64,000 nucleotides of DNA, from sequence record MT150133.1, one strand, 5' to 3'. Shown in pieces: positions 21,209-22,240 of this stretch (positions are counted from its first letter, which is position 1; the number at the start of each line of letters is the position of its first letter). Below the pieces are notes generated by a model. It made no database searches, was not told where the DNA came from, and saw nothing but the letters and a program-made list of their open reading frames with translations. Origin of the DNA: Enterobacteria phage vB_EcoM_IME540. The position numbers were made by a program, and so were the translations under genes.

Positions 21209-21481
21209 TTATTTTAAATAAATTGCATATTTTTTATAACCAGCCGTCTCGTGGCGCAGCCCTTTTTCATTAGCAAAACGTTCAATATTGTTAATTTGAT
21301 TCTGGTCGAGTTCTGAAGTATCAAATACAAAAAAGTTTCGCTTATTGCCTAAAGTTACGTGATTAGTCAAATCGATGTTATAGAGATGATTTATATTATC
21401 AATCATGGTCTTAACAGATTTGTTAATTTTTACTTCTTCATTAAGAATAGATTCAGCGATAAATTCTTGGTATGATTTCAT
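21209..21481 (-). CDS. internal-protein-like (capsid-targeted) protein
   Basis: N-terminus MKSYQEFIAES (capsid-targeting-like). Confidence 0.55.
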   Translation of the reverse strand: MKSYQEFIAESILNEEVKINKSVKTMIDNINHLYNIDLTNHVTLGNKRNFFVFDTSELDQNQINNIERFANEKGLRHETAGYKKYAIYLK

Positions 21482-21482
21482 T

Positions 21483-21707
21483 TTATTCAGCGCCAGCAGC
21501 TTTCAAAAGTTTTTTAAGATTGGCTATGCCGCCAGCAGAAAACGTGACCTTGCCACCTTTTTCATTGATAGAGCCAGTCAATTTAGCAAGCTTATCACTA
21601 GGGACTTTTTTAAAATCAGCCAGTGTGCCATCAAAGGTTTTTGTAACAATTGGCAGTTCATCTTCATGTCTTTTAGCTTCGGTGATAAATTCTTGATAAG
21701 TTTTCAT
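21483..21707 (-). CDS. internal-protein-like (capsid-targeted) protein, ipI position
   Basis: N-terminus MKTYQEFITEAK; located next to 57B as ipI in T4; promoter cassette upstream. Confidence 0.6.
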   Translation of the reverse strand: MKTYQEFITEAKRHEDELPIVTKTFDGTLADFKKVPSDKLAKLTGSINEKGGKVTFSAGGIANLKKLLKAAGAE

Positions 21708-21733
21708 TTTGATTTCCGTTTGGTTAGTTTGTT

Positions 21734-21773
21734 TTGATAGGTCTATAGTATCATGCCTATAGACCTTGTAAAC
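21734..21773 (-). promoter_or_regulatory. early promoter cassette (PeSL-like) copy 7, upstream of ipI-like gene
   Basis: Same core; inverted repeat AGGTCTATAG / CTATAGACCT. Confidence 0.6.
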
Positions 21774-21784
21774 AACTTTTTAAA

Positions 21785-22240
21785 TTATTTTAGGTCTTCA
21801 GCCCAGTCGAGCTTCAAGGGTTCTTTATATTCTCTGTCTAAAACAACAGGAATCTGGACATCTCCACTAAAGCTAAGTGGTCCTACATTATAAGACAGGG
21901 TGATATGAGGGGTGTAATCATCAAAATCGTGCGTAGCACCTAAGGTACGAGCATACTGATGGCGGCATTTAAGATACTCTGAATTGAGAACCAAAACCAG
22001 GACAGGAGAATCACCGTGTTTCCATACTTCAAGATGTCCTGACGAAGCAACTTCAAAACTTCCGGATGCAACGGTGTATGGAACGTTGACTCTTGAATAG
22101 CAGATTGTAGAATGGAATTTTTCACGAGGAACTGGATTAGGAACCTTTAAAGTGCGCTGAAGATTTTCCAGCGCATCTAAAGTTAATTCAGAGAATTTTG
22201 CAGCAACGTATAGACCTTGAGCAAAATCTTCGGTTTTCAT
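21785..22240 (-). CDS. 57B: gp57B, 2H-phosphoesterase-like (Acb1-type anti-CBASS nuclease position)
   Basis: 151 aa; two H-x-T/S motifs (FHSTICY, PHITLSY); synteny with 57A and gene 1. Confidence 0.7.

Follow-up and report, generated by a model that had tools for sequence, protein, structure and literature searches.

An ipI-type variable slot with two leader-bearing internal protein genes beside the anti-CBASS gene 57B of Enterobacteria phage vB_EcoM_IME540

Introduction

Why should two small genes with capsid-targeting leaders lie beside a gene for an Acb1-type phosphodiesterase, and where would their products act? The question is raised by the locus of 57B, Ip8 and Ip9 in Enterobacteria phage vB_EcoM_IME540, which was analysed within a 64,000-nucleotide (nt) stretch of sequence record MT150133.1, here called the window. 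It has three parts: (i) which genes the locus holds and which place in a T4-like genome it occupies, (ii) whether Ip8 and Ip9 travel in the phage head as internal proteins (IPs) and enter the next host, (iii) which host defence they would counter there.

Comparison with related genomes identifies the locus, almost certainly, as the Dhakavirus counterpart of the variable ipI slot, with the conserved gene 57B next to it, and there is hardly room for doubt about the identities of the genes (57B as Acb1, Ip8 and Ip9). The explanation as a whole, in which an Acb1 stands beside a slot that is bracketed by promoter-early stem-loop (PeSL) elements and filled with the packaged, injected anti-defence proteins Ip8 and Ip9, is considered likely. 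The locus is an ordinary one, already known and annotated: the names Ip8 and Ip9 reportedly go back to Repoila et al. in 1994, and the variable ipI slot is said to have been described in that year. Ip8 and Ip9 are two among many T-even internal proteins.

Gene content and position of the locus

The phage belongs to the Dhakavirus (JS98/IME08) group of T4-like phages. A 2.1-kb query around the locus has 99.9% identity to Escherichia phage QL01 and 99.4–99.6% to LHE83 and PSD9. The RefSeq record of QL01 (NC_028847) labels the three genes 'Ip9 gene product', 'Ip8' and '57B gene product', and the IME08 record labels its Ip9 'similar to RB15 and K3 Ip9'. All three open reading frames (ORFs) are on the minus strand (Table 1); an initial annotation of the window had given the coordinates and N-termini of the two small ones (MKSYQEFIAES... 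for Ip9 and MKTYQEFITEAK... for Ip8) exactly.

Transcription runs from gene 1 through 57A, 57B, Ip8, Ip9, trna.4 and trna.3 to trna.2. The spacers measure 77 nt between 57B and Ip8 and 68 nt between Ip9 and trna.4, and the Ip9 start codon lies 1 nt past the Ip8 stop codon. The same synteny, 57A-57B-ipI-trna.4, is found in T4, in agreement with the placing of the two genes at the ipI locus by the initial annotation: they occupy the slot between 57B/57A/gene 1 on one side and trna.4/trna.3/trna.2 on the other, as ipI does; it is one of two IP loci, the other being the ipII/ipIII region. Its description of 57B as 'immediately downstream' is true in plus-strand coordinates only, since in transcription the IP genes come after 57B. 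No PHROG match was obtained for four of the longer antisense ORFs on the plus strand that overlap or adjoin the locus, and a search of Rfam over 20900-22500 gave no credible match.

Table 1. Positions of the genes, leaders, promoters and other features in the window (aa, amino acids; pI, isoelectric point)
Feature	Position	Strand	Basis or detail
Gene 1	22478-23239	-	
57A, tail-fibre chaperone, conserved flank	22240-22485	-	Pfam GP57, E 1.8e-28
57B = Acb1, anti-CBASS 2H phosphodiesterase, 151 aa	21785-22240	-	PF23474; PDB 7T26/7T27; identity to T4 57B
PeSL-type element between 57B and Ip8	21728-21787	-	Early promoter TTTACA-N16-TACTAT (21745-21772) overlapping 10-bp hairpin (~21739-21766)
Ip8, leader-bearing internal virion protein, 74 aa; predicted mature form 64 aa, pI 9.6	21483-21707	-	phrog_8765; name from QL01
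Ip8 codons 1-10, capsid-targeting MKTYQEFITE, predicted gp21 cleavage after E10	21678-21707	-	9/10 residues as in T4 IPII/IPIII
Ip9, leader-bearing internal head protein, 90 aa; predicted mature form 80 aa, pI 8.0	21209-21481	-	phrog_7673; name from QL01
Ip9 codons 1-10, capsid-targeting MKSYQEFIAE, predicted gp21 cleavage after E10	21452-21481	-	9/10 residues as in T4 IPII/IPIII
Ip9 body, residues ~19-90	21212-21427	-	
PeSL-type element between Ip9 and trna.4	21160-21220	-	Early promoter TTTACA-N17-TACTAT (21177-21205) and hairpin (~21172-21197)
trna.4 homologue, conserved flank closing the variable slot	20955-21140	-	phrog_1692, E 6.4e-32; trna.4 in QL01 and IME08 annotation
First-locus leader-bearing IP, 99 aa, MKTYQEFITE...	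8794-9093	-	phrog_2667 'internal head protein', E 7.1e-43
First-locus leader-bearing ORF, 132 aa	9611-10009	-	phrog_15461, unknown function, E 1e-91
gp21, prohead core protease, expected leader-removing enzyme	53524-54159	+	Pfam Peptidase_S77, E 6.4e-103
gp22, scaffolding core protein, thought to be the leader target	54190-55005	+	Pfam T4_CASP, E 6e-90
Minus-strand promoter matches	1715-1743, 7085-7113, 9582-9610, 17230-17259, 17687-17716, 18019-18047, 21177-21206, 21745-21773, 56932-56961	-	GTTTACW-N15-18-TAYWAT
segB-type GIY-YIG/NUMOD3 homing endonuclease, 221 aa	19033-19698	-	Between tRNA-Arg 18953-19027 (-) and tRNA-Met 19740-19810 (-)

57B, an Acb1-type phosphodiesterase

The product of 57B matches the Pfam family PF23474 (Acb1) with an E-value of 8.9e-59 (197.8 bits, where the cutoff is 27) and the Acb1 structures PDB 7T26/7T27, which are of the FBB1 orthologue, with an E-value of 1.2e-58. 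Its alignment with T4 57B is gapless at 85% identity, and none of the 22 substitutions in 151 residues falls at a described functional position. In T4 Acb1 these positions are an HxT/HxT tetrad (H44, T46, H113, T115), the stacking residues Y12, W74, F107 and W147, of which W147 is the Trp of the C-terminal lid, and E141, which contacts adenine (PMC9117128). All nine functional residues are kept in the window, at numbers lower by one (Y11, H43, T45, W73, F106, H112, T114, E140 and W146). The protein has exactly two HxT motifs, H43-S-T45 and H112-I-T114, which together with the family match bear out its initial assignment to the 2H phosphoesterases; the accompanying claim that the T4 product degrades CBASS nucleotides corresponds to the published finding that T4 57B is Acb1 (Hobbs et al. 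2022, PMC9117128). Length, position beside 57A, tetrad, four stacking aromatics, adenine-contacting Glu and lid Trp are all shared between the window protein and T4 Acb1, and no difference of note is seen in sequence.

By strong homology to a characterised enzyme, 57B is a clear Acb1, with a predicted action on CBASS signals in the cytoplasm. It would be made inside the infected cell and work as a metal-independent 2H phosphodiesterase, cutting the cyclic di- and trinucleotide signals of CBASS 3' of adenosine, so that the CBASS effector would never be activated. As many as 1470 phage records hold Acb1 by tblastn; among T4-like phages it is therefore an accessory gene of wide conservation.

Capsid-targeting leaders and the predicted route into the head

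A six-frame scan of the whole window with the pattern MK.Y.[ED]F found four matches, each at the N-terminus of a minus-strand ORF: two belong to Ip8 and Ip9 and two to the ORFs of a first locus (Table 1). With two leader-bearing ORFs per locus, the term 'second pair' that had been applied to Ip8 and Ip9 is apt. The T4 proteins IPII and IPIII both begin with MKTYQEFIAE, and it is because nine of these ten residues recur in Ip8 and nine in Ip9 that the leader is not regarded as a chance resemblance in either ORF; its presence had been claimed for both. According to mutational work, residues 4 and 7 of the leader serve targeting and residues 8 and 10 processing, and the ten N-terminal residues are enough for a foreign protein to be loaded into T4 heads (PMC9026906). 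Y4, F7, I8 and E10 are kept in both Ip8 and Ip9. The predicted N-termini after removal of the leader are A11 in Ip8 (AKRHEDELPIVTK...) and S11 in Ip9 (SILNEEVK...).

The machinery that such a leader calls for is encoded in the window as well: the gp21 protease expected to remove it and the gp22 core protein thought to be its target (Table 1), along with the portal gp20 and the capsid protein gp23. Conservation of the leader and presence of this machinery make packaging and injection of Ip8 and Ip9 very probable. In the proposed sequence of events, (i) the leader would bring Ip8 and Ip9 into the gp22 scaffolding core of the prohead, (ii) the gp21 protease would cleave after Glu10, (iii) mature Ip8 (~6.7 kDa) and mature Ip9 (~9.4 kDa) would remain in the head with the DNA, (iv) both would enter the next host along with it. 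Being ejected with the DNA, they would act ahead of any phage gene expression. The likeness to IPI, IPII and IPIII of T4 thus has several sides: the slot is that of ipI, the leader is near-identical to those of IPII and IPIII, and the expected packaging, gp21 cleavage and route of injection are the same.

Ip8 and Ip9 beyond the leader

Ip8 and Ip9 are two mutually unrelated small proteins under one leader type. Ip8 matches phrog_8765 ('internal virion protein', E 8.1e-27) and is 75–93% identical to its full-length relatives (at least 72 aa); 20 homologues were collected, and those with a source name or a long contig come from T4-like phages. Ip9 matches phrog_7673 ('internal head protein', E 6.5e-56), shares 77% identity with RB15 Ip9 (Q38376), and has 53 of its 90 residues invariant in an alignment of 16 sequences. 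The Ip9 proteins of RB15 and K3 and the Ip8 proteins of T-even relatives are homologous to the window proteins over the full length, have the leader and the position between 57B and trna.4 in common with them, and differ by allelic changes only, for example Ser for Thr at position 3 of the Ip9 leader.

Homology of either protein to T4 IPI, IPII or IPIII past the leader was considered and rejected, as none was found. The comparison of the two bodies with T4 IPI that the initial annotation had proposed as a check gave similarity confined to the leader, and neither mature protein showed homology to IPI* (T4 IPI family), the inhibitor of GmrSD-CT596. A further candidate, Ip7 as a diverged paralogue of Ip9, came from a partial tblastn match to OLB35 'ip7' and was set aside: WG01 Ip7 aligns with Ip9 over the leader only.

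The AlphaFold2 models have a pLDDT of 80.4 for Ip9, whose body is modelled as alpha-beta-beta-alpha-beta-beta, and of 76.5 for Ip8. A function based on structure was rejected for both, model confidence being moderate and the searches uninformative. Among viral models, Foldseek found one 535-aa relative and otherwise noise, and the structure searches gave no fold match that links Ip8 or Ip9 to a known GmrSD inhibitor. A literature search on the names Ip7, Ip8 and Ip9 gave no pertinent phage paper.

The chemistry of the two proteins bears on an alternative in which they are packaged without any specific host target, as basic filler or DNA-associated core proteins that aid condensation or ejection, their variability reflecting weak constraint. 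Mature Ip8 is indeed basic, whereas mature Ip9 is near neutral (Table 1), and both are predicted to fold into compact domains, unlike disordered basic tails. In T4 heads the IPs number ~300 copies, and they bind DNA when salt is low (PMC9026906), as a filler might; an identical case was formerly argued for Ip2 and Ip3 of T4, which were later shown to have specific targets (PMC12373910). The genes are dispensable in relatives, with MX01 lacking Ip8 and T4 lacking both, but the families themselves are well conserved, and the 53 invariant positions of Ip9 suggest selection on a specific surface. A role as mere filler is improbable, and Ip8 and Ip9 are better taken as injected proteins with targets in the host.

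Candidate targets and the chemistry of the DNA

Of the T4 proteins Ip1, Ip2 and Ip3, every one blocks a GmrSD variant of its own, and Silas et al. (2025, PMC12373910) propose that GmrSD-type enzymes are what all products of the two Ip loci target. By analogy, each of Ip8 and Ip9 would, as the last step of the route outlined above, bind and block one host nuclease that attacks DNA with sugar-modified cytosine, and the likeliest targets would be Type IV restriction enzymes of the GmrSD family, as for the three T4 proteins. The analogy makes an anti-defence role of Ip8 and Ip9 somewhat probable; GmrSD-family enzymes as their specific target are a tentative suggestion. The 2025 result for T4 Ip1–3 makes Ip8 and Ip9 reasonable candidates for GmrSD-type screening.

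The cytosine modification of the host phage group can be approached through QL01. Its interval between uvsX and the DNA polymerase gene (16759-21470 of QL01 5000-35000), which is beside gene 42 and corresponds to a region outside the window, contains thymidylate synthase-like, thymidylate kinase-like and phosphoheptose isomerase-like genes and a gene for a 557-aa unknown protein; no alpha- or beta-glucosyltransferase is annotated in this interval. The kinase-like and isomerase-like genes match the RB69-type cytosine arabinosylation cluster, and in a 2026 study comparative genomics suggests a conserved RB69-type cytosine pathway for a set of groups that includes the Dhakaviruses. The modification of Dhakavirus DNA is probably arabinosylated cytosine rather than glucosyl-hydroxymethylcytosine, and the relevant GmrSD enzymes would for that reason be those active on the genus's own modification. 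One member of the GmrSD family, BrxU, cleaves arabinosylated cytosine DNA as well as every other cytosine modification tested (PMC13390438), in keeping with a target of Ip8 and Ip9 in this family.

The Ip9 body outside T4-like phages

The Ip9 body, without the leader, is found in other phage groups. In Kagunavirus JSSK01, a siphovirus, it forms a leaderless 72-aa gene that heads an apparent early operon, with in-frame stops 16 codons upstream, and metagenomic phage contigs encode leaderless proteins of 67–77 aa. In a Kuttervirus protein of 755 aa the body forms a domain at the C-terminus, and in a closely similar 861-aa protein from a representative library the domain is internal (residues 669-734). 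A T4-type leader (MKTFNEFISE) precedes the body in Av-05, which is classified in Vequintavirinae, and in distant T4-like contigs, and a divergent branch of the family in distant T4-like phages is again leader-bearing. The occurrences in the compared stretches are at L004 2507-2725, L005 473-2740, L006 2462-2725, L012 549-782 and L014 4193-4459. Deep sequence searches with the Ip9 body gave a small family with no Pfam domain and no annotation. Taken together, the leadered and leaderless bodies show directly a modular 'tag plus body' design.

This distribution is what an account would predict in which Ip8, Ip9 or both are injected inhibitors of a defence other than GmrSD. The IP loci would then be general arsenals, and the leader would turn a captured early inhibitor into one delivered with the DNA. 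The free body in JSSK01, the leaderless contig proteins, the Kuttervirus protein with its 861-aa relative and the divergent leader-bearing subfamily all speak in its favour, and so does the failure of fold matches to tie either protein to a known GmrSD inhibitor; T4 speaks for the opposite, in that 3/3 of its IPs with known targets hit GmrSD variants (PMC12373910). The breadth of the GmrSD family, in which BrxU cuts every tested cytosine modification (PMC13390438), also counts against a target elsewhere. Inhibition of a different defence is possible, if on the unlikely side, and inhibition of GmrSD-type nucleases by Ip8 and Ip9 is kept as the working proposal. A narrower version concerns Ip9: its body would be a portable inhibitor domain that circulates among unrelated phage groups and has a target other than a modification-dependent nuclease, and the T4-like phages would have added a 10-residue tag to it. 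This version is rather doubtful. If true, it would make the IP loci general stores of injected counter-defence proteins, and the leaderless homologues elsewhere could be used for finding the target.

Promoters, hairpins and repeats

An early-type promoter combined with a hairpin stands on both sides of the Ip8–Ip9 pair (Table 1). RNA folding gives -18.1 kcal/mol (z-score -5.8) for the element between 57B and Ip8 and -16.0 kcal/mol (z-score -3.9) for the element between Ip9 and trna.4. The two form an imperfect direct repeat of ~60 nt, in which two segments are 84% (D3) and 82% (D5) identical. T4 ipI has a promoter and a hairpin on both sides, in the same design. Both flanking promoters of the window fit the PST/T4 PeSL promoter consensus TTTACW-N17-TAYWAT (PMC4122927), with spacers of N16 and N17 against the published N17. 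Matches to GTTTACW-N15-18-TAYWAT in the window number nine on the minus strand and zero on the plus strand, as would be expected if early promoters of PeSL type were confined to early/variable gene blocks.

PeSL cassettes of T4-type phages were reportedly described by Arbiol et al. in 2010 and by Comeau et al. in 2014. The window elements resemble them in the type of promoter, in the stable hairpin that overlaps it and in the way that copies flank genes differing among close relatives; they depart from them in the hairpin sequences, which are unlike the published AGNA-loop-TCNT. A terminator-like consensus match inside Ip8 was at chance level and was dismissed. At the first locus, the last codons and the stop codon of the 132-aa ORF overlap an exact late-promoter motif, TATAAATA (9612-9619, minus strand), and a PeSL-type early promoter (9582-9610, minus strand) follows directly after that motif.

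Four points weigh against the reading of Ip8 and Ip9 as packaged, injected anti-defence proteins: (i) their presence in the virion, cleavage and injection are deduced from sequence features, (ii) beyond the leader they have no resemblance to T4 IPI, (iii) a leaderless Ip9 body occurs in a Kagunavirus, a group not known to have sugar-modified cytosine, and the domain sits within the 861-aa protein that closely matches the 755-aa Kuttervirus one, which argues that modification-dependent nucleases may not be what the Ip9 body acts on, (iv) the sole recognisable promoter directly upstream of Ip8 is an early one, and the exact late motif TATAAATA does not occur between that of gene 4 (25211-25218) and Ip8. 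A late promoter for the IP cassette was rejected on the last ground, the exact motif being absent from 25218 to Ip8.

The promoters would equally suit ordinary early cytoplasmic proteins that are never packaged and in which the leader is a relic: only an early-type promoter stands directly upstream, and there is no exact late promoter within 3.5 kb upstream. The missing late promoter is weak counter-evidence to packaging, because T4 ipI has the same arrangement and yields a packaged, injected product. A relic, moreover, would sit uneasily with a leader that, in both families and in dozens of phages, keeps every position of known importance and that by itself, at ten residues, carries foreign proteins into T4 heads (PMC9026906). 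That Ip8 and Ip9 are purely cytoplasmic is very improbable, and leader-directed packaging is retained for both.

A variable slot beside a conserved gene

The interval between 57B and trna.4 was described in the initial annotation as hyperplastic, and its content does differ across five Dhakavirus genomes and T4. The Dhakavirus genomes hold two to four different leader-bearing genes in the slot. The window and QL01 have Ip8 and Ip9 (644 nt); IME08 has an additional 69-aa leader-bearing ORF with Ip8 and Ip9 (852 nt); PSD2002 has a 109-aa leader-bearing ORF with Ip8 and Ip9 (1007 nt); WG01 has ORF147, Ip8, Ip9 and Ip7; MX01 has Ip9 and Ip7. T4 has ipI alone. That gene content differs between conserved PeSL copies in the five Dhakavirus genomes is consistent with shuffling. 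The ~60-nt repeats would supply transcription signals together with homology for recombination that swaps IP genes between related phages; this role of PeSL in recombination we infer from position only.

Some of the leader-bearing genes are incompletely annotated in the public records. In IME08 (HM071924) the leader-bearing Ip8 (74 aa) at 4478-4702 and the 69-aa ORF (MKTYNEFLTEAMES...) at 4781-4990, both in coordinates of the stretch compared, are unannotated; the stop codon of 57B and the start codon of the 69-aa ORF overlap. The PSD2002 homologue of Ip8 is annotated as 97 aa (1259-1552), with a start upstream of the leader, and the 74-aa ORF starting MKTYQEFITE (1259-1483) is the likely true Ip8 product.

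The three genes had also been described as an 'anti-defence island'. Adjacency of 57B and the IP genes stands; a co-regulated module does not, because a promoter/hairpin element separates 57B from the IP cassette and because the adjacency is synteny shared with T4. The members also contrast in their distribution, since tblastn against phage records finds Acb1 in 1470, the Ip9 body in 199 and Ip8 in 107. The 'island' is best read as inherited synteny, in which a conserved anti-CBASS gene lies beside a hotspot where injected proteins are swapped.

Neighbouring genes and mosaicism

Two differences from QL01 lie on either side of the locus. Gene 2 (23912-24748) comes directly after gene 3 in the window, and the annotated homing endonuclease that QL01 has between genes 3 and 2 (6913-7563 of the QL01 stretch) appears to be absent (window ~23830-23912), judging from ORF coordinates only. 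On the other side, the segB-type homing endonuclease (Table 1) is placed within a small tRNA cluster, as segB is in T4. At least 80% of the 1.8-kb segB/tRNA stretch is covered by four records only (AnYang twice, LHE83 and LQ5), at 95–97% identity, and QL01, KIT01 and MX01 cover just 54–57% of it. Because QL01 covers this stretch poorly, the window is a mosaic and not QL01 itself.

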